From assembly GCA_041653515.1 (NCBI GenBank), contig JBAZFG010000004.1, positions 6,568 through 70,567 on the forward strand: a stretch of 64,000 nt of DNA. The letters are read 5' to 3'. Positions 1,884 to 58,069 of this stretch are shown here, piece by piece. The stretch's first letter is position 1. Each line of letters opens with the position of its first letter. A model generated the notes under the pieces. It worked only from the letters and a program-made list of their open reading frames with translations. It was not told the origin of the DNA and searched no databases. The translations under genes and the position numbers were made by a program. Origin of the DNA: Candidatus Nanoarchaeia archaeon. Its GTDB lineage: Archaea > Nanobdellota > Nanobdellia > WJKC01.

Positions 1884-3899
1884 ATGGCGGAAATTGATGA
1901 CAGGATTGCTGCTCTTGCTAAAATGTTTAATAACACTACTGATGAAAATGAAAAAGCAGGCATTCAAAAGCAAATTGAGACTCTAAAATTATTGAGGAAT
2001 AAACAATCACAGGAGAGCACTGAAAAAGAGAAAACCTCTAAAGAAAAATACGAAGAAGAATCACAGGAGAGCACTGAAAAAGAGAAAACCTCTAAAGAAA
2101 AATACGAAGAAGAATATTATAAAAAGAAACTTGAAACTGAAAGTGCTGCTCAAAAAGCACAAAGTTCCTCTAAGACATTATTCAAACAGGGCTTGTCTTC
2201 TGGTTGGTTATTATTATTTATCGTTATGGCTGTTATTGGCTTCTTTTTAGTAATATTTAGCACATGGCTGGTTGGATTGCCATTAATCATTGCTGCAGGC
2301 GTGATAGCTTACAATAGAGGTAACTTAATGATACCAAGATTAACAGCAATACTAATCGCAATGTCATTCAAGTGGATGCCAATCATACCCCAATATGATT
2401 TAATCAGCGTTTTTGGCGTGACAATCGGTTTCATGGCAATAGTATTATTAATGCCTGAAGCCAAAGAGGGTAATAGTAAAAGCGGAGGGGTCTTTAAAGC
2501 AGGACCTGCTTTGTGGTGGGGTATTCTTGGTGTTATCATAACAGTTGGTTGGTCTATATTCATTTTTGCTGGAGTAACAAGCGGCACTACTATTGCGGCT
2601 GTCGCTGCTATTACTGGCGCAATGGTTGCGGGCAGTATTATCTGGAAGCAACCAATTAGTTCTGGTTGGAAAGGAATCTTAACACTAGCTTGTTTCTCGC
2701 CATTAATATTCCTCGGAGTTCAATACTTATTCATTGCAGGCGGCACAGCTCTTGGCGGCATCTTTGATGAAGTACAGCACTTACTAGGCCAAGGCATTGG
2801 TAGCACAGGCACATCACTTGACTGGTTATTAAACCCAACGCTGGCAGTGCAAGCTCAACTAAAACCACCAAGCACTGCAGCAACAACTACTAGTGGCACA
2901 GTCTCAAGCGTTAAATTAACTGTTACAGGGGATACCCTGCCAAGCACTGGTTGTTATGATTCCAGCCCATTCCAAATAATTGGTCGCATCAAGAATACAG
3001 GCACAGAGCATATCAGCTCGCTTGATGTTATAATGGAGCCTGACTGGTCTGGCGCGTCATTAACAAGTCAGTGCCGACAGATTAATTTGCCAACTGATTG
3101 CTCAACAACTATCACTTCAATCCCAACCGGTGTCACCTCAACCGTTGATTGCACAATTGAAAGCGTGCCGTCAAGTGATATTATAGGCGCGACAGCTACT
3201 CACACTTGTTATGTTGATATCACTGCAACAACAGGTTATCATAGCACTGCCCGACTGCCAATCCAATTCATTGAGTATGAGTATGGTCGCAGTAAGTTTG
3301 AGCAACACCAATTAACTCAACGAATCACGCCAAGCACGACTGGACCCGGCCCAGTTGAATTAAGCCTTGGTGGTTTTGAGCAACCAGTGCTTAATTATGT
3401 TAGCACAGGAAACGCGTCACCGCAGAAACTAACAATGATAACTACTATTAGTAATGACGGTACAGGTGATGTTAATAATTATGTTAGCGCTTACTTGTAC
3501 ATTCCTAATGTATTATTAGATGAAGGTCAATGCTCAGGCGCAGGCAATGGTTGGACTTGTATTAGTGAATTAAATTGTGATTCATTAAGCGATGAAGCTA
3601 AGACTAATTGCTTGAATTTCCTTACTTACAAGAATAATGGGTTAATCGCGGGTTATACTCAATTTGATTATGATTACGCTGACGAGTTATTAAATAATGA
3701 TTTCTCAATCTGCTTTTACAACAATGAGATTAATATTGATAATATTGAGACTAGCAAGTGCGTGTTAAAAGTTGGTGATGTAATGGATGGTGATAGTACT
3801 GCACTTAGGAAAACAATGCTAATAAGAGGCGATGTTCTTTACTCTTACAAAGTGACTGGTGAAGCCAGCTTCCAAGTCAAGGATTGTGATGTATCATGA
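1884..3899 (+). CDS. Polytopic membrane protein with N-terminal coiled/repeat region and C-terminal Thr/Ser/Cys-rich extracellular domain (CARDB-like NTGT motif)
   Basis: 671 aa. Tandem 18-aa repeat SQESTEKEKTSKEKYEEE x2. About 6-8 hydrophobic helices between aa 105-290. Downstream region contains IGRIKNTGTEHISSLDV, typical of DUF11/CARDB beta-sandwich domains. Stop overlaps the next start (ATGA). Confidence 0.6.
   Translation: MAEIDDRIAALAKMFNNTTDENEKAGIQKQIETLKLLRNKQSQESTEKEKTSKEKYEEESQESTEKEKTSKEKYEEEYYKKKLETESAAQKAQSSSKTLFKQGLSSGWLLLFIVMAVIGFFLVIFSTWLVGLPLIIAAGVIAYNRGNLMIPRLTAILIAMSFKWMPIIPQYDLISVFGVTIGFMAIVLLMPEAKEGNSKSGGVFKAGPALWWGILGVIITVGWSIFIFAGVTSGTTIAAVAAITGAMVAGSIIWKQPISSGWKGILTLACFSPLIFLGVQYLFIAGGTALGGIFDEVQHLLGQGIGSTGTSLDWLLNPTLAVQAQLKPPSTAATTTSGTVSSVKLTVTGDTLPSTGCYDSSPFQIIGRIKNTGTEHISSLDVIMEPDWSGASLTSQCRQINLPTDCSTTITSIPTGVTSTVDCTIESVPSSDIIGATATHTCYVDITATTGYHSTARLPIQFIEYEYGRSKFEQHQLTQRITPSTTGPGPVELSLGGFEQPVLNYVSTGNASPQKLTMITTISNDGTGDVNNYVSAYLYIPNVLLDEGQCSGAGNGWTCISELNCDSLSDEAKTNCLNFLTYKNNGLIAGYTQFDYDYADELLNNDFSICFYNNEINIDNIETSKCVLKVGDVMDGDSTALRKTMLIRGDVLYSYKVTGEASFQVKDCDVS
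2007..2114 (+). repeat. Perfect 54-bp tandem duplication (2 copies) inside the CDS, encoding an 18-aa repeat
   Basis: tcacaggagagcactgaaaaagagaaaacctctaaagaaaaatacgaagaagaa at 2007-2060 and again at 2061-2114. Confidence 0.9.
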
Positions 3900-6926: not shown

Positions 6927-6947
6927 ACTCTTTTTATATGAAAAGAA

Positions 6948-7020
6948 ACTTTGGTTTCCCAATAAACGCTCTTTTCAAAAAAAAGGAAGAGGTGTAGAGA
7001 GGGGAAAACTTTGGTTTCCC
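6948..7020. repeat. Two direct copies of GAAAACTTTGGTTTCCC, each holding the small hairpin GAAAC-TTTG-GTTTC, between convergent genes. Possible bidirectional terminator pair.
   Basis: gaaactttggtttccc at 6948-6963 and gaaaactttggtttcccc at 7002-7020. Confidence 0.4.
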
Positions 7021-15831: not shown

Positions 15832-15920
15832 TCAAAGAAAATGATTAGAAAAGAATATAAACTAATTAACAATAGTTAATTAATTATGATTTTACCACAA
15901 GAACTAGAAGTCTTCCCGAA

Positions 15921-15971
15921 CCGCAGGGGGGACACCCCCCTTCAGTTCATGGCATCTCCTGATTCCCCCCG
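15921..15971 (+). repeat. 51-bp GC-rich palindromic core element, copy 1 (CCGCAGGGGGGACACCCCCCTTCAGTTCATGGCATCTCCTGATTCCCCCCG)
   Basis: Identical to copies at 16022-16072 and 57921-57971. GGGGGG-ACA-CCCCCC hairpin plus a second CCCCCC tract. Confidence 0.9.
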
Positions 15972-16021
15972 AAAACGAGGCGACCAATGATTCTTCCACA
16001 AGAACTAGAAGTCTTCCCGAA

Positions 16022-16072
16022 CCGCAGGGGGGACACCCCCCTTCAGTTCATGGCATCTCCTGATTCCCCCCG
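16022..16072 (+). repeat. 51-bp GC-rich palindromic core element, copy 2
   Basis: Identical to 15921-15971. Confidence 0.9.
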
Positions 16073-16087
16073 AAAACGAGGCGACCA

Positions 16088-16441
16088 ATGATTCTTCCAC
16101 AAGAACTAGAAGTCTTCTATGTCATCCCCGCAATCAGGCGGGAACTAGCCCTATCCCTTAGCAAAAAAGGCTTTAAACAAAAAAAGATTGCCCAGATTTT
16201 CGGGGTCACTGAAGCCTGCATCAGCAATTACTTCAAATCAAAAAGAGCTAACGAAGTCAAATTCAACGTTAAAATAATCAAATTAATCAATGATTGTGCT
16301 GAAAAACTATCAAAAGGACAAACTTGTTTCATTAACGTTGTCCAAAAAGTTTGCAAAGAATTCAAGAATAGCGAGTGTTTATGCGCTCTTCACGAAAAAC
16401 TTGACGAGCACGTCTGTAAATGCAGGGGGTGCTTAGAATGA
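16088..16441 (+). CDS. HTH transcriptional regulator with C-terminal Cys cluster, upstream of iscSU (possible Fe-S responsive regulator)
   Basis: HTH-like KKIAQIFGVTEACISNYF. C-terminal CLCALHEKLDEHVCKCRGC. Stop overlaps the iscS ATG (ATGA). GAGG RBS 8 nt upstream of the ATG. Confidence 0.45.
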   Translation: MILPQELEVFYVIPAIRRELALSLSKKGFKQKKIAQIFGVTEACISNYFKSKRANEVKFNVKIIKLINDCAEKLSKGQTCFINVVQKVCKEFKNSECLCALHEKLDEHVCKCRGCLE

Positions 16442-19661: not shown

Positions 19662-20264
19662 ATGAAAATATTAGCGACTGCGGACATACACGGGGACAAA
19701 AAACTAGTTGACCGCTTAATTAAGAATAGTAAGGACGCTGACGTAATTGTTGTGGCCGGTGACCTGACTTGGGCTGAAAATGATTTGCGAGGGATTATTG
19801 GGCCACTAAAAAAGCAAGGCAAACCAATTATTATGATACCAGGCAATCACGAAACACTAGCTTCAGTTGATTTCTTAGAGAACTTGTATAAGCCGGGTGT
19901 TTACAACTTGCACGCGCGCGGCATTAAAATCGGTGACACTTGTTTTGTTGCTTGCGGTTCAGGTAACATTGGTTTATTCCAACTAAGCGATGATGAAGTC
20001 ACTGACGCTTTAGAGAAAGCAATTAAAGAAGTAAAGGGTTGCACTAAAACAGTGCTAGTCACTCACACGCCGCCATACCAAACATTACTGGATAACCTTG
20101 GCTGGACTAATGCAGGGAGCAAAGCGGTCAGAAAATTCATTGAGAAGCACAAACCAGACTTATGCTTGTGCGGCCACATCCACGAGACCGCAGGTTTAAT
20201 GGAGAAAATAGGCAAGACACTAGTGGTAAACGTTGGGTTTAGCGATAAGATAATTGAGATATGA
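19662..20264 (+). CDS. Calcineurin-like metallophosphoesterase
   Basis: ADIHGD, VVAGDLT, GNHE and HTPP motifs. Confidence 0.7.
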   Translation: MKILATADIHGDKKLVDRLIKNSKDADVIVVAGDLTWAENDLRGIIGPLKKQGKPIIMIPGNHETLASVDFLENLYKPGVYNLHARGIKIGDTCFVACGSGNIGLFQLSDDEVTDALEKAIKEVKGCTKTVLVTHTPPYQTLLDNLGWTNAGSKAVRKFIEKHKPDLCLCGHIHETAGLMEKIGKTLVVNVGFSDKIIEI

Positions 20265-20364
20265 TTAACGCCCCTAACCTCAAAAGGGGGAGGTTAGGTC
20301 CAAGGAGGGAGAACGCCTCCTGGACGTAAACGTTGGTTTTAGTGATAAAATAATTGAGATTTAA
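20265..20364 (+). repeat. 61-bp GC-rich double-hairpin insert followed by a ghost copy of the last 12 codons plus stop of the metallophosphoesterase
   Basis: Insert 20265-20325 carries CCCCTAACCTC-AAAA-GGGGGAGGTTAGG and CCAAGGAGG-gagaacg-CCTCCTGG hairpins. Ghost GTAAACGTTGGTTTTAGTGATAAAATAATTGAGATTTAA (20326-20364) versus live GTAAACGTTGGGTTTAGCGATAAGATAATTGAGATATGA. Both encode VNVGFSDKIIEI*. Confidence 0.8.
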
Positions 20365-28043: not shown

Positions 28044-28157
28044 GCTTCGGTAGCTCAGAGGTAGTAGCGCTGCTCCGGTACGCTCACTTCGTTTATGTAA
28101 TAACGAGAGTTGAGCCTAGAAAGGCAGAGGTCGTGGGTCCAATTCCCATCCGAAGCT
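28044..28157 (+). tRNA. tRNA with 41-nt canonical 37/38 intron. Anticodon probably GGT (Thr).
   Basis: Acceptor GCTTCGG/CCGAAGC. D-arm GCTC..TAGC. Anticodon stem CTGCT/GGCAG (28070-74 / 28123-27). Loop CCGGTA|A, exon1 ends at 28080, intron 28081-28121. T-arm GTGGG-TCCAATT-CCCAT. Discriminator T28157. C33 is unusual, so anticodon identity is tentative. Confidence 0.65.
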
Positions 28158-31254: not shown

Positions 31255-32685
31255 ATGCGAAAAACAATCCTATTAATAGCTTTTATTCTAATGGCTGGGG
31301 TAACAAGCGCGGTTAGTTATGAAGTCACTGGGGTTAAAACAAGAGTATACCCTGAGGAGAGTCTTATTTACAGGATAAACATAATTAACAATGACTCGGT
31401 TAGCAAAGAGGTTTACATTAACAAGTATATGGTGGAGAACACTTTTGGTATGGCTAGCAGTGTTAGGCCGTCAATTAACCTTGTTTTATCACCTAATAGT
31501 TCAACAATCATTAATGTCACAATTCCAGTTAGTAATAGTGTTACTAAAGGGACTTACAGCACGCCATTATTATTCTCTTACGGCAATACCACCACGGACA
31601 GGGTTTATCTTGAATCAGTTATTCTTAGTAAGGTATTAGAACCAATTGAATTGCAAAACATTACGGTCATTAACCCTGAGAGCATTATTCCAGTTCATGA
31701 GTTTAACACAACAGTCACGCTCTTATGCAACATTGAGTCAGTTTACCCGTTAGTTAAAATAACTGTTAGTGATGATAATGGAATTATTTATGAGTCTAGC
31801 AGTGTTCAGGAATTAAAAGAAGGTATTAATGTGTTCAGGCGCAGCGTTAAATTACCTGACCGAACAATGCCTGGCACTTACACTTTATTAGTTGAAGCTA
31901 GTGTTTCGGGCAGGGTTATTACTCAGGGGGTGGGTGATTTAGTAATTAATCCCTACACTTACATTAATTATTCAGCTGGGGTTTATGAGGACTTGTTTGG
32001 TAAACGAGTTAATCGCACTGCGGATAACCTTGGTACTGAAATAATTAACACTAGTGTTAATTACACTACTTCGTTATTAGAGCCATTATTAATTAATCGA
32101 ATATTATTATTAATTAAGAAAGATGGTAATATTATTAGTTCAACTACACCTGTTATTAGTGATTACTTAATTAATGAATTAGTCACGCTTGAATCAGGTG
32201 AGTCAGCTGAATTAATCATTGAGTTTGGTTATGGCTTATTAATTGCAATCCCATTTGTTATTATCTTAGTGATTATTGGTTGGTTCTTCGTGACTAAGCG
32301 AGTAATTGTTAAGAAAGAAATAATTGAATGCCATAAGGATGGTAATGAATTAACCGTTAAGGTTGGAGTTAGTGTTAAGAACGTTTCACTTAGCAGTATT
32401 AATAATGTTAAAATTATTGAGGATTTGCCTGTTTACGCTAAGAAAGCAGGCGCTTTTGGCAGTATTAAGGGTGATATTGACCGCAAGAAAGGTATTATTA
32501 CTTTCCTGCCAGGCCGGCTTGACCCTAAAGAAGAAGTATTATTATCTTATAAATTCAAGACTGATATTGAGTTAGTTGGCAGGGTCTCGTTGCCGCCAGC
32601 CACAGTTAAGTTCAGGGTTGATGATAAAGTAATGATTGTTAAGAGTAATACTACTGGCATTGAATTAATTAAAGGCGGAGAGTAA
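31255..32685 (+). CDS. Secreted surface protein with C-terminal transmembrane anchor, hypothetical
   Basis: Signal peptide MRKTILLIAFILMAGVTSA. Beta-rich body with sequons. Hydrophobic segment LLIAIPFVIILVIIGWFFV near aa 320. Confidence 0.5.
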   Translation: MRKTILLIAFILMAGVTSAVSYEVTGVKTRVYPEESLIYRINIINNDSVSKEVYINKYMVENTFGMASSVRPSINLVLSPNSSTIINVTIPVSNSVTKGTYSTPLLFSYGNTTTDRVYLESVILSKVLEPIELQNITVINPESIIPVHEFNTTVTLLCNIESVYPLVKITVSDDNGIIYESSSVQELKEGINVFRRSVKLPDRTMPGTYTLLVEASVSGRVITQGVGDLVINPYTYINYSAGVYEDLFGKRVNRTADNLGTEIINTSVNYTTSLLEPLLINRILLLIKKDGNIISSTTPVISDYLINELVTLESGESAELIIEFGYGLLIAIPFVIILVIIGWFFVTKRVIVKKEIIECHKDGNELTVKVGVSVKNVSLSSINNVKIIEDLPVYAKKAGAFGSIKGDIDRKKGIITFLPGRLDPKEEVLLSYKFKTDIELVGRVSLPPATVKFRVDDKVMIVKSNTTGIELIKGGE

Positions 32686-32838
32686 AAACAATCTATTCTT
32701 TCATCTTTACATCCAATCTTAGCTCAATAAACCCTTTTCTCGCTTCGCTCCAAAAGTATTTCATCCCAAAATTAATGCGCTTAGTAATCTTTTTAAAACA
32801 ATCTATTCTTTCATCTTTGTATCCCGTCTTAGCTCAAT
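32685..32838 (+). repeat. 44-bp direct repeat x2 (110 bp apart) duplicating the tRNA-Tyr upstream region and the first ~16 nt of the tRNA
   Basis: aaaacaatctattctttcatctttacatccaatcttagctcaat (32685-32728) versus aaaacaatctattctttcatctttgtatcccgtcttagctcaat (32795-32838). Confidence 0.8.
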
Positions 32839-32958
32839 GGTAGAGCGCATGGCTGTAGACCAATACTGGATTCAAAATATTCTCGTGTTGGGGAAAAGCG
32901 TGCATTGAGCAGGCATTCAGATACCATGAGGTTCCCGGTTCAAATCCGGGAGACGGGA
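32823..32958 (+). tRNA. tRNA-Tyr (GTA) with 64-nt intron at 37/38
   Basis: C1:G72 acceptor CCCGTCT/AGACGGG, which is the archaeal Tyr identity. D-arm GCTC-AATGGTA-GAGC. Anticodon stem CATGG/CCATG. Anticodon GTA at 32855-57. Intron 32859-32922. T-arm CCCGG-TTCAAAT-CCGGG. Discriminator A32958. No encoded CCA. Confidence 0.8.
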
Positions 32959-33050
32959 CATTCTTATTCCTCCTGGTTCAAACTCTCGAGTGAAACGAGA
33001 GAGTGCCTGAGCGAGCGATAGCGAGTGCAGAGCATCCGGGAGACGGGACA
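32944..33050 (+). repeat. tRNA-Tyr 3'-end duplication flanking a structured insert (element A)
   Basis: 17-bp direct repeat ATCCGGGAGACGGGACA at 32944-32960 and 33034-33050. Insert 32961-33033 = CATTCTTATTCCT + CCTGGTTCAAAC (T-arm mimic) + hairpin CTCTCG-AGTGAAA-CGAGAG + GTGCCTGAGCGAGCGATAGCGAGTGCAGAGCA. Confidence 0.8.
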
Positions 33051-35973: not shown

Positions 35974-36070
35974 GTCAGGGAGATGGGACATTCTTATTTC
36001 TCCTGGTTCAAACCCACGAACGAAGTGAAGTGGGTGCCTGAACGAAGTGCAATGTGTCCAGTAGATAGGA
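35974..36070 (+). repeat. Degenerate third member (element B) of the tRNA-downstream structured element family. No tRNA present.
   Basis: GTCAGGGAGATGGGACA (a tRNA 3'-end-like remnant) + CATTCTTATTTCTCCTGGTTCAAAC + hairpin CCCAC-GAACGAAGTGAA-GTGGG + GTGCCTGAACGAAG. Covaries with element A. Confidence 0.7.
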
Positions 36071-39817: not shown

Positions 39818-39880
39818 GTTAAAACAAGCGACGGCAGGGGCCTGGAATTTATTCCAGTGCACCGGCCGAAGCGATTATCT

Positions 39881-40446: not shown

Positions 40447-40586
40447 GGGCCCGTAACTCAGTCTGGTTAGAGTACTTGGCTTTTACGTCGCTACGCTCCT
40501 CCGTCCTTACGGACGGACGCTCGCTTGCTAAAACAAGCGGTGACGAGGATACCAAGGAGTCGCGGGTTCGAATCCCGTCGGGCTCA
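40447..40586 (+). tRNA. tRNA-Lys (TTT) with 65-nt GC-rich intron at 37/38
   Basis: Acceptor GGGCCCG/CGGGCTC (G2:U71). D-arm ACTC..GAGT. Anticodon stem CTTGG/CCAAG. Loop CTTTTA|A. Intron 40486-40550. T-arm GCGGG-TTCGAAT-CCCGT. Discriminator A40586. Confidence 0.75.
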
Positions 40587-40747
40587 CATCCTCAAGGAGG
40601 GGGACTCCCCCTCCTTTAGAGATAATTCTCCCCCGATAAGTTGCGCCAAAGGCGCTAACCAATAAGTGGGTTCAAACCAACGGAGCTCTGCGAAGTTAGT
40701 GCCTGAACGAGCGAATAACAAAGTTCAGAGCATCCCGTCGGGCTCAC
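40572..40747 (+). repeat. tRNA-Lys 3'-end duplication flanking a 144-bp structured insert (element C)
   Basis: 16-bp direct repeat ATCCCGTCGGGCTCAC at 40572-40587 and 40732-40747. Insert includes the perfect 23-nt palindrome AAGGAGGGGGA-C-TCCCCCTCCTT (40594-40616), the T-arm mimic GTGGGTTCAAACC, and the conserved arm GTGCCTGAACGAGCGA...CAGAGCA. Confidence 0.8.
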
Positions 40748-40932
40748 TCAACCCCTTTCTTTTACAAAGAAAGTGGTTTGATCCCCAAAGAAACTATTTG
40801 ATTCGAGCTAACGCTCGAAAGTTATTTACTAAAGAATTGCGCCAGAAGCGCTAATAAACTGGCTCAAACCCAAGGGGTGATGGCAAATAATAATAGTAAA
40901 ATTTATAATGATATCAAACGAATAAAAACATC

Positions 40933-50937: not shown

Positions 50938-51621
50938 ATGGTTAAGAAATCTTTATTGCTGAAAGCAAAGGAAATTGAGGATAAGAAGATTGTTAAGAAA
51001 GGCGAGGAAGTCTTGATTGATTTTAGTGATATTAAATTGTTTGATAAGTGGGATACTAATAATATTGAGGTTAAGGATGAGGGTTTGAAGCGTTATATTA
51101 ATCTTAAACCAGTAATCGTGCCTAAGACTCATGGTCGTAACCAAAAGACTCGTTTCTGGAAGAGTAAACAACATATTGTTGAGCGATTAATGAATCATGT
51201 GCCTGTTAGTGGTCATAAGGGCAAGAAGCATTATTGGAGTAGTGCTGAGCAGATTGGTGAGGGTCATACTATTTTTATGGTTATGATTAAGGCTTTAACT
51301 GAGATTGAGCGTAAGACTAAAATAAACCCTGTTGAAGTGATTGTTCGGGCGATTGAGAAGTCTTCACCGCGCGAGGAAGTCACAACAGTTCAGTATGGTG
51401 GTATTAAGCATCCTAAAGCAGTTGATTGCGCGCCTCAGCGAAGGGTTGATTTAGCGCTTCGTTGGATGAGTCAGGGCGCTTTCCAAGCGAGCAATAAGGG
51501 TAAACGTCGTATTTGGAGCACTTTATCTGATGAGATTATTGCTGCTTACAATAATGACCGTAAGAGTTTAGCTATTAGTAAGAAATTTGAGACTGAACGA
51601 CAAGCTGCTGCCAGCAGGTAA
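50938..51621 (+). CDS. rps7: Ribosomal protein S7 (uS7)
   Basis: 227-aa uS7/eS5-type sequence, in the canonical S12-S7 order. Confidence 0.9.
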   Translation: MVKKSLLLKAKEIEDKKIVKKGEEVLIDFSDIKLFDKWDTNNIEVKDEGLKRYINLKPVIVPKTHGRNQKTRFWKSKQHIVERLMNHVPVSGHKGKKHYWSSAEQIGEGHTIFMVMIKALTEIERKTKINPVEVIVRAIEKSSPREEVTTVQYGGIKHPKAVDCAPQRRVDLALRWMSQGAFQASNKGKRRIWSTLSDEIIAAYNNDRKSLAISKKFETERQAAASR

Positions 51622-51714
51622 AATTGATTTTTTCTAATAATTAATATTATTCTTTGGGGTGAAGCCCTTTCTTTTTAAGAAAGGGTTTCTTTGAGACTGA
51701 ACGACAAGCTGCTG
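51589..51714 (+). repeat. rps7 3'-end duplication: 22-nt direct repeat flanking a hairpin-bearing insert
   Basis: GAGACTGAACGACAAGCTGCTG at 51589-51610 (the live end, ..GCCAGCAGGTAA) and at 51693-51714 (ghost, ..GTATCAAGATAA = ETERQAAVSR*). Between them lies the hairpin GAAGCCCTTTCTT-TTTAAG-AAAGGGTTTCTT (51661-51692). Confidence 0.8.
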
Positions 51715-51736
51715 TATCAAGATAAAAAAAGATTAA

Positions 51737-56810: not shown

Positions 56811-57122
56811 ATGAGTTCGAAAGCCCGAATTAAATTAAGTAGCACTGAACCTGAAGCACTTAATAGTATTTGCGAGCAAATTAAGGGCATTACTAGTCGG
56901 ACTGGGGTTGACATTAAAGGACCAGTGCCATTGCCGACTAAGAAGATTCGAATGGCTACTAGGCGTGCTATTAGTGGTGAGGGCAGGGAAACTTATGAGA
57001 GTTGGGAGTTAAGGATTCACAAGCGATTAATTGATATCCCAATGGATGAGCGCGCGTTAAGGCTGATAATGAGGATTGCCATCCCTAAGAGCGTTAACAT
57101 GGAAATGGAAATTACTGAGTAA
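56811..57122 (+). CDS. rps10: Ribosomal protein S10 (uS10)
   Basis: ARIKLSSTEPEALNSICEQIKGITSRTGVDIKGPVPLPTKKIRMATRRA. Confidence 0.85.
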   Translation: MSSKARIKLSSTEPEALNSICEQIKGITSRTGVDIKGPVPLPTKKIRMATRRAISGEGRETYESWELRIHKRLIDIPMDERALRLIMRIAIPKSVNMEMEITE

Positions 57123-57250
57123 AATATTTAATATTTAGTTCTTTTGGTCAAGGTTTTCTTGCTAAGAAAAGCTTGTTGGAAATGGAAATTACTGAGTAAA
57201 ATATTTAGTTCTTTTGGTCAAGGTTTTCTTGCTAAGAAAAGCTTGTTGGA
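57101..57250 (+). repeat. Tandem duplication (~73-77 bp x2) of the rps10 3' end (last 6 codons + stop) and its 3'UTR hairpin
   Basis: ggaaatggaaattactgagtaaaatattta[atattta]gttcttttggtcaaggttttcttgctaagaaaagcttgttgga at 57101-57180, and again without the 7-bp extra at 57178-57250. Contains the stem GGTTTTCTT-GCT-AAGAAAAGC. Confidence 0.85.
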
Positions 57251-57262
57251 ATAAAATAATTC

Positions 57263-57898
57263 TTAACGGTGCTTATACCTGCCTCTTGATTCAACAGTTA
57301 GTAATCGTTTAATTACTTCCCTGCCAATAGGGTAATGTTTCTCGTAAGCTTTTTTGAATAACTTCCATGCTTTATGGTAAACATTATAGTGACGGCTCAT
57401 CAAAGCTTGTTTTAGAACATGCAAGTCAACTGCTCTTGACTCAACTTTATCACTAACCTCGCTTAAACCAAAATCAATAATGAATAATTCACCCTCTTTT
57501 AGCAGCATATTACTTGTTGTTAAGTCGCCGTGAATAATATTATTAACATGCAATAAAGCCACTAAACGACCAACTTCTTTCATAACATTAAGATTATTAT
57601 CAAGCACATCACGCAGGACTGGCGCGTCAATGAAATCCATCGTGATTGAGTAATCAGTCACGCCGCGAACTCTTGGCACATTAATTAGTTTACCAGCCCG
57701 CTCCAGTAACCGCGCCTCGGCCTTAGTTCGCTGGCGACGCAACATTAAATCAAGCTCTTTAATACGATAAGACTTTTTCACCCGCGCCTTAATTAAAGTT
57801 GAACCATCACGCCATAACTTACTCTCAGCCCCTTGCGCAATAATCTGGCGCTTATTGCTCTTCGCTTCGCTCAGCCGCTCTTTATTATTTAACGCCAC
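57263..57898 (-). CDS. bud32: Bud32/PRPK-like protein kinase (KEOPS)
   Basis: RQIIAQGAESKLW, IIHGDLTTSNMLL, IIDFGLS. GTG start at 57898 with GAGGTGA SD 7 nt upstream. Adjacent to kae1. Confidence 0.75.
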   Translation of the reverse strand: MALNNKERLSEAKSNKRQIIAQGAESKLWRDGSTLIKARVKKSYRIKELDLMLRRQRTKAEARLLERAGKLINVPRVRGVTDYSITMDFIDAPVLRDVLDNNLNVMKEVGRLVALLHVNNIIHGDLTTSNMLLKEGELFIIDFGLSEVSDKVESRAVDLHVLKQALMSRHYNVYHKAWKLFKKAYEKHYPIGREVIKRLLTVESRGRYKHR

Positions 57899-58069
57899 TT
57901 AACTATCACCTCATCCCAAACCGCAGGGGGGACACCCCCCTTCAGTTCATGGCATCTCCTGATTCCCCCCGCAAAAACTAACGCCACTTAACTATCACCT
58001 CATCCAAACTTTTCCGCTCCGCGCAAAACCTTGACCAAAAAACTAACGCCACTTAACTATCACCTCATC
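57891..58069. repeat. Three direct copies of a 25-32-bp segment (kae1 3' end + bud32 RBS/start) separated by two different short inserts
   Basis: AACGCCACTTAACTATCACCTCATC at 57891-57915, 57980-58004 and 58045-58069. Spacer 1 contains the 51-bp GC-rich core. Spacer 2 = CAAACTTTTCCGCTCCGCGCAAAACCTTGACCAAAAAACT. Confidence 0.9.
57921..57971 (+). repeat. 51-bp GC-rich palindromic core element, copy 3
   Basis: Identical to 15921-15971 and in the same orientation. Confidence 0.9.

Follow-up and report, generated by a model that had tools for sequence, protein, structure and literature searches.

How did the start of a single archaeal gene come to stand three times in a row, interleaved with copies of a GC-rich hairpin? 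The question is raised by positions 15886-16117 of a 64-kb window (the whole stretch of 64,000 nucleotides analysed here, taken from contig JBAZFG010000004.1 of the Candidatus Nanoarchaeia archaeon assembly GCA_041653515.1), at the head of a gene encoding a 117-amino-acid (aa) helix-turn-helix (HTH) protein. The first 30 nt of this gene are designated T and the 71-nt GC-rich hairpin module is designated E; all coordinates refer to the window unless a relative, designated by an L-number, is named. Tandem Repeats Finder (TRF) reported the array with a period of 101, 2.3 copies and 98% matches, in the layout T(30)-E(71)-T-E-T, in which T comprises the ATG and nine further codons (MILPQELEVF) of the 117-aa HTH open reading frame (ORF). 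The array is a real and reproducible structure, recent in evolution. The explanation that we favour, with about as much belief as doubt, is that a hairpin module was inserted at a gene boundary with duplication of the gene terminus, that the resulting unit was later doubled, that the module now functions as a leader, and that the joining was polar and recombination-like.

Filled and empty sites at the HTH gene start

The features of the array and its immediate surroundings are as follows.

15854-15861, + strand: TATA-like box AATATAAA, 24 nt 5' of the first ATG, read from the sequence
15886-15915, + strand: T1, the displaced original gene start, Leu = TTA, outgroup-like, now opening upstream ORF 1 (uORF1)
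15916-15986, + strand: E copy 1, 71 nt, covariance model score 96 bits
15918-15948, + strand: 5' stem-loop of E copy 1, GAAC-CGC-AGGGGGG-ACA-CCCCCCT-TCA-GTTC, 14 pairs, 2 of them compensatory
15965-15970, + strand: second C6 run of E copy 1
15977-15983, + strand: Shine-Dalgarno (SD)-like GAGGCGA of E copy 1, ending 4 nt before the next ATG
15987-16016, + strand: T2, second gene-start copy, Leu = CTT, opening uORF2
16017-16087, + strand: E copy 2, identical to copy 1, with SD-like GAGGCGA at 16078-16084
16088-16117, + strand: T3, the first 30 nt of the HTH ORF
16088-16441, + strand: HTH regulator gene, 117 aa
15886-15990 and 15987-16091, + strand: two tandem 34-codon uORFs, the TGA stop of each overlapping the next ATG

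An original prediction, made from the letters of the window, had described two perfect 101-bp units. The units lie where they had been placed, and their perfection is lost at two bases, 15892 (T/C) and 15894 (A/T). These are the sole differences of the first copy from the second and third and amount to a synonymous exchange of the Leu codon (TTA versus CTT), just as had been proposed; T2 equals T3 and both copies of E are identical. The 34-aa ORF that each unit was said to encode, closed by the ATGA of the next copy, is also present in both. The module contains 63% G+C against 36% for the window, a 45-nt core pattern matched three times in the window and in none of 100 shuffles, and short-range direct repeats of at least 14 nt numbered 16 in the window against a shuffle mean of 0.25.

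The gene order NrdD, a 208-220-aa protein, HTH, IscS and IscU is kept in relatives, with the HTH gene heading an HTH-IscS-IscU operon. Exactly one T-E-T unit was found at the same site in four independent assemblies of a sister species (three Joint Genome Institute (JGI) samples, L001-L003, and GCA_030154545.1), whose HTH protein is 84% identical to that of the window and whose module has the hairpin loop GCG in place of ACA and the tail GAGGTGA in place of GAGGCGA. In L005 and L022 (HTH identities of 74% and 63%) the site is empty, the promoter box being followed directly by a single ATG. A third state was found in L021 (HTH identity of 71%), where a 54-nt hairpin module of another type, designated b, with a AAGGTGGTG tail, stands at the same ATG with a 17-nt duplication. 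The occurrence of both filled and empty orthologous sites shows that insertion at the HTH start is derived, and this start codon has evidently been struck at least two times by different modules. A comparison of related genomes for presence or absence, which had been suggested as a check, has thus returned one unit, an empty site or another module depending on species, and it upholds the proposal that a small element was inserted at this locus and that some 30 bp from the beginning of the gene were duplicated with it.

Amongst the species compared, the two-unit state was seen in the window's genome alone, in which the 101-nt T-E unit would have been doubled after the first insertion. The cause was most likely unequal recombination between T copies, where a crossing-over between T1 and T2 would act in their identical 21-nt 3' parts; another insertion into T2 is a possible alternative source. 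Amplification, as had been predicted, is the best reading of a second unit in which T2 equals T3 and one E equals the other whilst the sister species has one unit, and it is further favoured by a tandem duplication at the S10 locus described below.

It is improbable, in our estimate, that the second unit is an assembly artefact, in which an extra pass of a de Bruijn-graph loop had turned one true T-E-T into two. The perfect identity of the repeated parts, the single assembly in support of two units and the one unit of all four sister-species assemblies could each be so explained, and the 21-nt part shared by T1 and T2 may confuse small k-mers. Assemblers, however, usually collapse tandem repeats and seldom expand them, the difference between T1 and T2 is resolvable at k above ~24, and tandem amplification of a like kind is seen at the S10 locus and at the second locus of E. 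An artefact would in any case touch copy number only, and not the existence of T-E-T.

Dispersal of the module and a wider set of insertions

The core of E had been noted to recur identically over 51 bp at a second locus. The recurrence is identical, with a length of 53 nt rather than 51 (15919-15971 = 57919-57971), and the locus contains the following features.

57916-57978, + strand: E, 63 nt, with the 53-nt core identical to locus 1, without SD tail, with b-like termini CCAAAC...CAAAAAC, 80.6 bits
58005-58043, + strand: b-type module, 39 nt, comprising CAAAC, a hairpin TTTTCCGC/GCGCAAAA and CCTTGACCAAAAAAC
58044-58069, - strand: functional 3' end of Kae1, 26 nt (GATGAGGTGATAGTTAAGTGGCGTTA = DEVIVKWR + TA of the stop)
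57979-58004, - strand: identical 26-nt copy of the Kae1 3' end
57890-57915, - strand: identical 26-nt copy of the Kae1 3' end

Read in gene orientation, the b module stands between Kae1-end copies 1 and 2 and E stands between copies 2 and 3, antisense to the flanking Kae1 and Bud32 genes, whilst the Kae1/Bud32 junction of the relative L008 is empty. The longest ORF of Bud32 (57263-57898, minus strand) takes its GTG start from inside the duplicated Kae1 end, which is probably not the real start; the Bud32 proteins of relatives are ~12 residues shorter and start downstream.

Recurrence of the core elsewhere in the genome had been made a test of the mobile-element reading; outside the window, further copies of E were found in two relatives, at the IscU start of L001 and of L021. 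In L001, of the sister species, a second variant of E lies between IscS and IscU with a 26-nt duplication from the IscU ATG, whilst in L021 a copy at the IscS/IscU junction is accompanied by a duplication of only 6 nt (ATGAAC); the same junction of the window is empty and has the usual ATGA overlap. A covariance model built from five distinct copies and run over ~145 kb retrieved six full copies of E and one distant copy (tRNA-adjoining, 40590-40651), at three kinds of locus in three species, and retrieved no E from the species whose sites are empty. All five distinct copies retain the 5' stem-loop, the foot of which shows two compensatory pairs (GAAC...GTTC to AAAC...GTTT), and the G6-N3-C6 of E forms a 15-bp palindrome. 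Within one genome the copies agree on the loop-side variant, which is GGGGGGAC for the window and GGGGGGGC for L001, and the 5' ends of the modules are rather constant (CCGAAC, CCAAAC and CAAAC).

Searches of Rfam 15 returned only tRNAs at the gathering threshold, and nothing for E or b with E-values up to 5. The array had no blastn match amongst PLSDB plasmids, three patterns searched in viral contigs gave only chance matches in GC-rich phages without flanking similarity, and a protein search for E-encoded peptides with the concatenated open frames of E gave no match. Exact look-ups of the HTH, Bud32 and IscS products, in the form delimited here, returned no recorded protein. Public genome and metagenome contigs contained no exact match to a 27-mer and then a 22-mer common to both species, though the 27-mer fails on the loop variant and these collections were evidently without the L001-L003 samples. 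Antisense ORFs of 31-32 aa in E (e.g. 57889-57987 and 15904-15999) are by-products of the module.

Between the window and the sister species, T1 is identical at 29/30 positions, E at 67/71 and the functional T at 26/30, and the HTH gene, IscS, the upstream gene and NrdD are 74-82% identical. T1 and E together match at 96/101 positions, for which P is ~1.6e-5 at a background identity of 80%, and at the single lineage-specific position of T (ATT versus ATA) both T copies of each genome agree. This conservation fits purifying selection on a functional leader together with concerted evolution, and it also fits recent independent insertion at one and the same site. It is plausible that T1 has been conserved as the remaining leaderless initiation site, the SD-led functional copy being freer at synonymous sites.

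The same conservation could be expected if E were primarily a cis-regulatory sequence of the isc operon under selection, with mobility incidental; it might then be a structured RNA in the leader, or an operator to which the Cys-rich HTH regulator binds. Four of the five distinct E loci lie within the HTH-IscS-IscU operon in three species, T1 and E are far more conserved than the flanking genes, G6-N3-C6 forms the 15-bp palindrome, the hairpin is kept with compensatory changes, and SD and uORF coupling are preserved. We nonetheless regard a primarily regulatory role as improbable: the sampling is biased, as it was by way of the HTH gene that the loci were retrieved; a copy of E stands antisense between Kae1 and Bud32; some relatives that have this operon are entirely without E; in L021 the position is taken by a b-type module; Rfam offers no match; and neither the uORF peptide nor the frame through E is conserved. 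The suggestion that E could be a structured RNA or a leader stands in its second half, a leader fitting the promoter geometry, the uORF and the SD tail, whilst no structured-RNA family was matched.

On sequence comparison, E appears to be one member of a family of hairpin modules, ~40-70 nt in length, that stand at gene boundaries and are restricted to one lineage, a small clade of Candidatus Nanoarchaeia (DPANN). Each insertion is accompanied by a direct duplication of the adjoining gene terminus, and both flanking genes are intact. Other insertions in the window are listed here.

57101-57247, + strand: S10 3' end, 29-nt duplication (57101-57129, 57178-57206), with two reverse b-type modules (57137-57177, 57207-57247)
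51586-51725, + strand: S7 3' end, duplicated over 25-36 nt (51586-51621 functional, 51690-51725 relic)
20226-20364, + strand: metallophosphoesterase 3' end, 39 nt (20226-20264 functional, 20326-20364 relic), with a 61-nt GC-rich hairpin insert
40572-40747, + strand: tRNA 3' end, with a 16-nt duplication flanking an insert of 144 nt

In L008, the S10 stop is directly followed by a convergent gene. The S7 insert contains a reverse b-type module (51650-51689) and its gene-end copies end in ASR-stop and VSR-stop, with Ser encoded by AGC and TCA respectively. The metallophosphoesterase copies have five differences, all synonymous or in the stop codon, and the region of the insert has the same sequence in an independent Logan contig, L011. 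At the orthologous site of L021 there is a perfect 65-nt duplication of the metallophosphoesterase 3' end; GTGGGTTTCAG in this insert had been considered a tRNA T-arm-like part of the element, and proved to be the duplicated gene end. A TATA-like sequence of L021 also has a hairpin insert, with a 14-nt duplication. The 144-nt tRNA insert opens with the distant E relative at 40590-40651 (19.8 bits, E ~0.001) and a b-type module comes next (40748-40795), the tRNA 3'-end duplications of the window being 16-17 nt long.

The b modules consist of a 5' AAAC, a T-rich/A-rich hairpin and TTGAYCC(CC)AAAGAAC, and the copy at the HTH gene of L021 is 84-85% identical to the best-matching window copies, an alignment of b modules with MAFFT being unreliable over the variable hairpin. 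A common layout of E and b can be read from the sequences, in that the first hairpin arm has a further complement in a second segment downstream (E, G6/C6/C6; b, TTTCTT/AAGAAA/AAAGAA). The b modules found 3' of stop codons are oriented to give U-tracts on the mRNA. No such inserts were found in ~32 kb of the empty-site species, hence the distribution is patchy. C/D-box small RNAs, integron attC sites and IS91-type ends were weighed by eye and dismissed, as the boxes or core sites mismatched.

The idea that the element specifically targets gene starts is contradicted by these loci: E at 57.9 kb follows the last eight codons and stop of Kae1 in the opposite orientation, and related modules stand after the stop codons of S10, S7 and the metallophosphoesterase gene.

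Junction geometry, joining and the predicted leader

Four independent gene-start events were compared, namely E at the HTH gene, E at IscU in L001, E at IscU in L021 and b at the HTH gene in L021. In all four the duplication starts at the A of the ATG, with lengths of 30, 26, 6 and 17 nt respectively, and the functional ATG is directly preceded by the 3' tail of the module (AAGGTGG or GAGGYGA, with 3-5 nt more). The uORF opened by the displaced ATG also crosses the module in all four and stops on the TGA of the ATGA over the real start, for which the probability from frame alone is (1/3)^4 = 0.012. As the reading frame through E differs between events, it is not the uORF peptide that is conserved; the HTH uORF of L001 ends 13 nt early through a later C-to-T change. 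SD tails were found on gene-start copies only, and are absent from gene-end copies of E and b.

Over all events the duplications measure 6, 14, 17, 25-30, 36-39 and 65 nt. The fixed duplication of about 30 bp that had been proposed thus gives way to a range of 6-65 nt, which argues against a simple transposase-type target-site duplication; a fixed target duplication of ~26-30 nt was likewise ruled out by the cases of 6, 14, 17 and 65 nt. A constant joint at the gene boundary, coupled with a second joint of varying position, is unlike the fixed stagger of a transposase or the ruler of a CRISPR integrase. The geometry is polar, the 3' end of the module being joined exactly at the gene boundary and the other joint lying 6-65 nt inside the gene or flank, as if a DNA segment had been linked in through recombination, one of its joints lying out of register. 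Such geometry fits "insertion with long, variable target duplication" followed by amplification, and not a fixed-stagger transposase, CRISPR integration or a bulge-helix-bulge (BHB) intron.

The regular appearance of locus 2, which resembles a mini-array of three repeats and two spacers with exact repeat boundaries, could bring to mind off-target integration by Cas1-Cas2 ('neo-CRISPR'), in which T would be a pseudo-repeat and E and b would be 'spacers'. Several T lengths (25-30 nt) are in the range of CRISPR repeats, and ruler-type duplication of the repeat is established for CRISPR adaptation (PMC4872114). We nevertheless rate this origin as very improbable, given that T varies from 6 to 65 nt, that the inserts of 39-144 nt are related to one another in termini and hairpin layout and are not unique captures, that the same insert occurs at different loci, and that no CRISPR array or cas gene is present in the 64-kb window. 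Constant repeats with unique spacers of uniform length, the hallmark of a CRISPR array, were not observed.

The two T copies differ in six events, with 13 of the 15 differing codons synonymous and two conservative (S/T and A/V); one of the changes, Ser AGC versus TCA, is unreachable by single synonymous steps. Where an outgroup is informative, it was found that the displaced copy keeps the outgroup-like state and that the gene-contiguous copy, by the 3' end of the module, has changed. In a hand count, 12 of 19 base differences run from AT to GC in the functional copy (pairs 15886/16088, 20226/20326 and 51586/51690 of the window, 4469/4564 of L001 and 9930/10001 of L021), a trend contrary to the AT-rich host composition and consistent with a GC-richer source.

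A recombination tract was detected at one of the loci. In nt 1-210 of L001 IscU, 26 of 44 informative sites agree with L021 and not with the window, as against 8 of 39 in nt 211-372, and this mosaic is supported by a maximum chi-square of 12.7 (permutation p = 0.005). It follows that the module came in jointly with a fresh copy of the gene start, both carried by a tract of ~210 nt that recombined from a diverged lineage; its homologous joint lies inside the gene, whilst the other, out of register, falls 26 nt within the resident copy. The original prediction of a small element plus amplification was broadly right, save for its target specificity and fixed duplication size, and for this one related module that arrived by recombination with part of a gene.

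The excess of synonymous differences could alternatively mean that both T copies are constrained, were the insert and one T copy removed at the RNA level by splicing of an archaeal BHB intron or by translational bypass. The many intron-bearing tRNAs of the host imply that a splicing endonuclease is present. No hBHBh' motif with the required intron length was found at the HTH, Kae1 or IscU loci, however, and such candidates as occur elsewhere are weak and AT-rich; the genes are intact without any splicing, and the synonymous differences of L001 are explained by import of a foreign allele. Removal from the RNA is accordingly the least credible of the explanations considered and is scarcely to be believed.

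A stronger challenge comes from the possibility that E and b are non-autonomous elements, akin to MITEs (miniature transposable elements with inverted repeats), mobilized in trans by an enzyme encoded elsewhere that makes long variable duplications. An IS1634/IS1549/IS1630-type transposase is one candidate, and another is target-primed copying with a first nick at the 3' end of the element and a variable second nick. The dispersed, small, non-coding and near-identical copies (a 53-nt identical core at two loci), the fairly constant 5' ends and the greater likeness of copies within a genome than of orthologous copies (GGGGGGAC in the window, GGGGGGGC in L001) are all as expected of such elements, as are the patchy species distribution, the hitting of the same ATG by two different modules in different species and the identical T boundaries of two modules at locus 2. 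Duplications of 8-514 bp are produced by IS1634/IS1549, a family common in Euryarchaeota (PMC2266710). On the other hand, no transposase, integrase, reverse transcriptase or Cas1 was found amongst the window ORFs, including by Pfam searches of unannotated ORFs and of an AT-rich block beside the tRNA genes. Clear terminal inverted repeats are lacking beyond G6/C6 (the ends read 5' CCGAAC/CAAAC versus 3' GAAAAC, with or without the SD tail), as is a short target duplication of fixed length, and no parent insertion sequence was found in the window. SD tails at gene-start copies only would be odd for a fixed mobile unit, and plain target duplication predicts neither the synonymous differences of the gene-contiguous T nor its foreign character in L001. 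Mobilization in trans is thus in our judgement unlikely, if well within the bounds of serious consideration.

Recombination-like polar joining remains the explanation that we prefer, and several points weigh against it. No recombination mosaic was found in the HTH-IscS region (p above 0.27), so that the 30-nt duplication at the HTH gene looks like an in-situ event and the import model applies to one other locus only. The mechanism of insertion is argued from junction geometry, neither an enzyme nor a donor having been found, and the constant 5' ends of the modules would favour a defined element terminus over random illegitimate joints. At locus 2, two different modules with identical 26-nt T boundaries suggest re-use of a site, a possibility also where the second HTH unit is concerned; the b-like termini of the locus-2 E suggest, as an alternative there, a tandem duplication whose core was later converted. 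Two units are supported by one assembly, an independent Logan assembly of the same organism not spanning the locus (its contig found through IscU begins inside IscS, so it gives no unit count), and the family census rests on ~145 kb. Transcription start, uORF translation, SD use and terminator activity are predictions from sequence.

With these reservations, the course of events under the preferred explanation can be set out. A module entered the start of the HTH gene, predicted to be leaderless, and duplicated its first 30 nt, as the filled and empty sites show. An A/T box lies 22-24 nt before the HTH ATG in all five species examined, a spacing which by standard archaeal promoter geometry implies a leaderless transcript with its start at or near 15886. 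Transcription would still begin from the old ATG, which would open a 34-codon uORF crossing the module and melting the G6/C6 hairpin; its stop is the TGA of an ATGA that overlaps the next start codon, and an SD (GAGGCGA, or in the sister species GAGGTGA) would be supplied by the 3' tail of the module, 4 nt 5' of the real ATG. The layout of a translationally coupled uORF leader, with the ATGA overlap and GAGGCGA 4 nt before the ATG, is present at the HTH gene, and likewise at L001 IscU, L021 IscU and the HTH gene of L021. The module thereby appears to serve now as a translated leader with a ribosome-binding site, and the HTH gene would have been turned from leaderless to SD-led, translationally coupled initiation. 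ATGA starts are common, occurring in 26 of 54 window genes, and SD-like motifs lie 5' of 16 of the 54 against a background of 10%, a roughly three-fold enrichment. The reverse-oriented modules, which place U-tracts directly after stop codons, look terminator-like.

Known systems and neighbouring features

The nearest described precedent for long, variable target duplication with amplification concerns restriction-modification units of kb size, mostly from competent bacteria, in a survey that contains no archaeal case (PMC2853133). As in that class, the inserts lie between long direct target repeats of variable length and have no mobility gene linked to them; the repeats commonly reach over the 3' end of an adjoining gene and serve for tandem amplification, and there is an association with DNA uptake and recombination (PMC2853133). 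Inserts flanked by sequence that is single in an empty genome were found at the HTH start, the IscU start and the Kae1 end. Tandem amplification was seen at the HTH gene (2.3 units versus one in the sister species) and at S10 (two units). The duplications are variable with no mobility gene nearby, but are mostly 30 bp or less, and what is inserted does not constitute a gene unit. In the cases described before, the units are bacterial, protein-coding and of kb size with duplications above 30 bp, whereas the modules described here are families of non-coding hairpin sequences of 39-144 nt with duplications of 6-65 nt that carry an SD or U-tracts.

Small, non-coding, hairpin-forming repeats in many copies at gene boundaries are known in bacteria as Correia/nemis, ERIC, RUP and REP/BIME, and can supply promoters, terminators or RNA-stability signals; in size, lack of coding capacity, hairpin formation, copy number and position the archaeal modules resemble these repeats, as they do in the expression signals that they would donate. 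The bacterial repeats, however, have defined terminal inverted repeats or a REP tetranucleotide, a short fixed target duplication or none, and a known or suspected DDE or RAYT transposase. None of these bacterial repeats is known to abut start codons or to duplicate tens of coding bases, and abutment to the start codon, an SD tail and a coupled uORF are not known from any described family.

Target duplications of variable length are shared with IS1634/IS1549 (8-514 bp) and IS1630 (19-26 bp), the first of which belongs to a family well represented in archaea (PMC2266710; PMC2853133). These are autonomous, transposase-coding elements of 1.5-2 kb, though, and no such gene or matching ends were found in the window. 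An integrative element with att sites, of kb size and with its integrase gene between the direct repeats, is also a poor match for a 71-nt insert, there being no integrase in the window, the AT-rich block beside the tRNA genes included.

Homology-facilitated illegitimate recombination during DNA uptake was reportedly described by de Vries and Wackernagel in 2002 in naturally competent bacteria. Its homologous joint in a gene, its illegitimate joint, the foreign DNA and the local duplication all fit the L001 IscU mosaic, but it leaves unexplained the joint at a module terminus and the movement between unrelated loci, and the HTH locus is without a foreign tract. The GC clusters of yeast mitochondria and the repetitive hairpin elements of sponges are said to be mobile GC-rich hairpins in AT-rich organelle genomes; the modules are like them in having spread through an AT-rich compact genome with insertion at or within genes, and differ in the domain of life, in that the organelle hairpins have very short or no target duplication and neither start-codon abutment nor an SD tail.

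The modules may be described as small hairpin repeats, dispersed in the genome, whose insertion brings target duplications that are long and of variable length. A bolder proposal, which we put forward tentatively and with more doubt than conviction, is that the modules are a novel class of tiny mobile 'expression cassettes' in DPANN archaea. These would insert by polar copy-and-join exactly at start or stop codons with variable duplication of the terminus, rewire leaderless genes to SD-led, uORF-coupled expression, set terminators between abutting genes and spread across lineages with pieces of genes.

DPANN genomes are amongst the most compact on record: their genes abut or overlap, and many of their transcripts are leaderless. 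Modules of 40-70 nt that enter a gene boundary without damage to either gene, and that bring an SD or a U-tract, would offer a concrete route to the remodelling of expression, and the pairing of variable duplication with a junction fixed at the start codon, a poor fit to standard transposition, may inform on archaeal recombination. The modules also generate spurious small ORFs and mislead the calling of start codons. Their effect on assembly may be seen in Logan contig L010 (SRR18595300), which stops exactly at the Kae1 stop codon, the first repeat, and in L007, which starts 16 nt before Bud32 at a small hairpin; breaks at module and repeat boundaries indicate that the modules fragment short-read assemblies.

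The remainder of the window encodes archaeal housekeeping functions, including intron-bearing tRNAs, an RNA polymerase operon, EF-2, EF-1alpha, S7/S12/S10, Kae1, Bud32 and class III ribonucleotide reductase. The HTH protein is identical to one annotated from a Candidatus Nanoarchaeia genome; it has only weak HTH_23/Tfx-like matches at its N-terminus and a conserved C-terminal Cys/His cluster, and belongs to a family of ~20 relatives of the same 117-aa length with the invariant N-terminus MxLPQExEVFYVIPAIRRE. In the window, one ORF of 849 aa encodes the class III ribonucleotide reductase, which is called as two overlapping ORFs in L021 (5786-5998 and 5982-8534) and L022 (5016-5165 and 5158-7641), where the short piece corresponds to C-terminal NRDD.

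Other repeats and hairpins were encountered, mostly around the tRNA genes. Rfam detects three tRNA genes (32823-32958, 40447-40586 and 28044-28157) whose introns are long, at 114-140 nt in total, and which ARAGORN misses. One tRNA promoter with the first 20 nt of its gene is duplicated upstream (91% identity), and the 3' end occurs three times (32685-32838, 32944-33050, 35974-36060, 40667-40747). A third type of module (GGTTCAAAC, a hairpin with compensatory changes and GTGCCTGARCGA...AGTGCA) lies by two tRNA 3'-end duplicates and once more at 36.0 kb, and an AT-rich 3-kb block between tRNA copies encodes an MBL-fold hydrolase and an Lrp/AsnC regulator. Within the insert upstream of one tRNA, CTCGCTTCGCTC (32740-32752) is complementary, with one bulge, to GAGCGATAGCGAG (33005-33020) within the insert downstream of the same tRNA, which recalls the leader pairing of split tRNAs and may be due to chance. 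GC-rich hairpin-capable sequence GGTTAAAACAAGCGACGGCAGGGGCCTGGAATTTATTCCAGTGCACCGGCCGAAGCG is located directly 3' of tRNA-Asp (39819-39873).

Elsewhere, a perfect 54-nt tandem repeat (2005-2115, 2.1 copies) adds an in-frame 18-aa Glu/Lys-rich repeat to a 671-aa ORF (1884-3899). At 6946-7020, two copies of a 15-nt direct repeat, AAACTTTGGTTTCCC, are separated by 60 nt; the second copy lies in a hairpin, GGGGAAAC-TTTG-GTTTCCCC, just 3' of a gene end, and may be another flank-duplicated insert.

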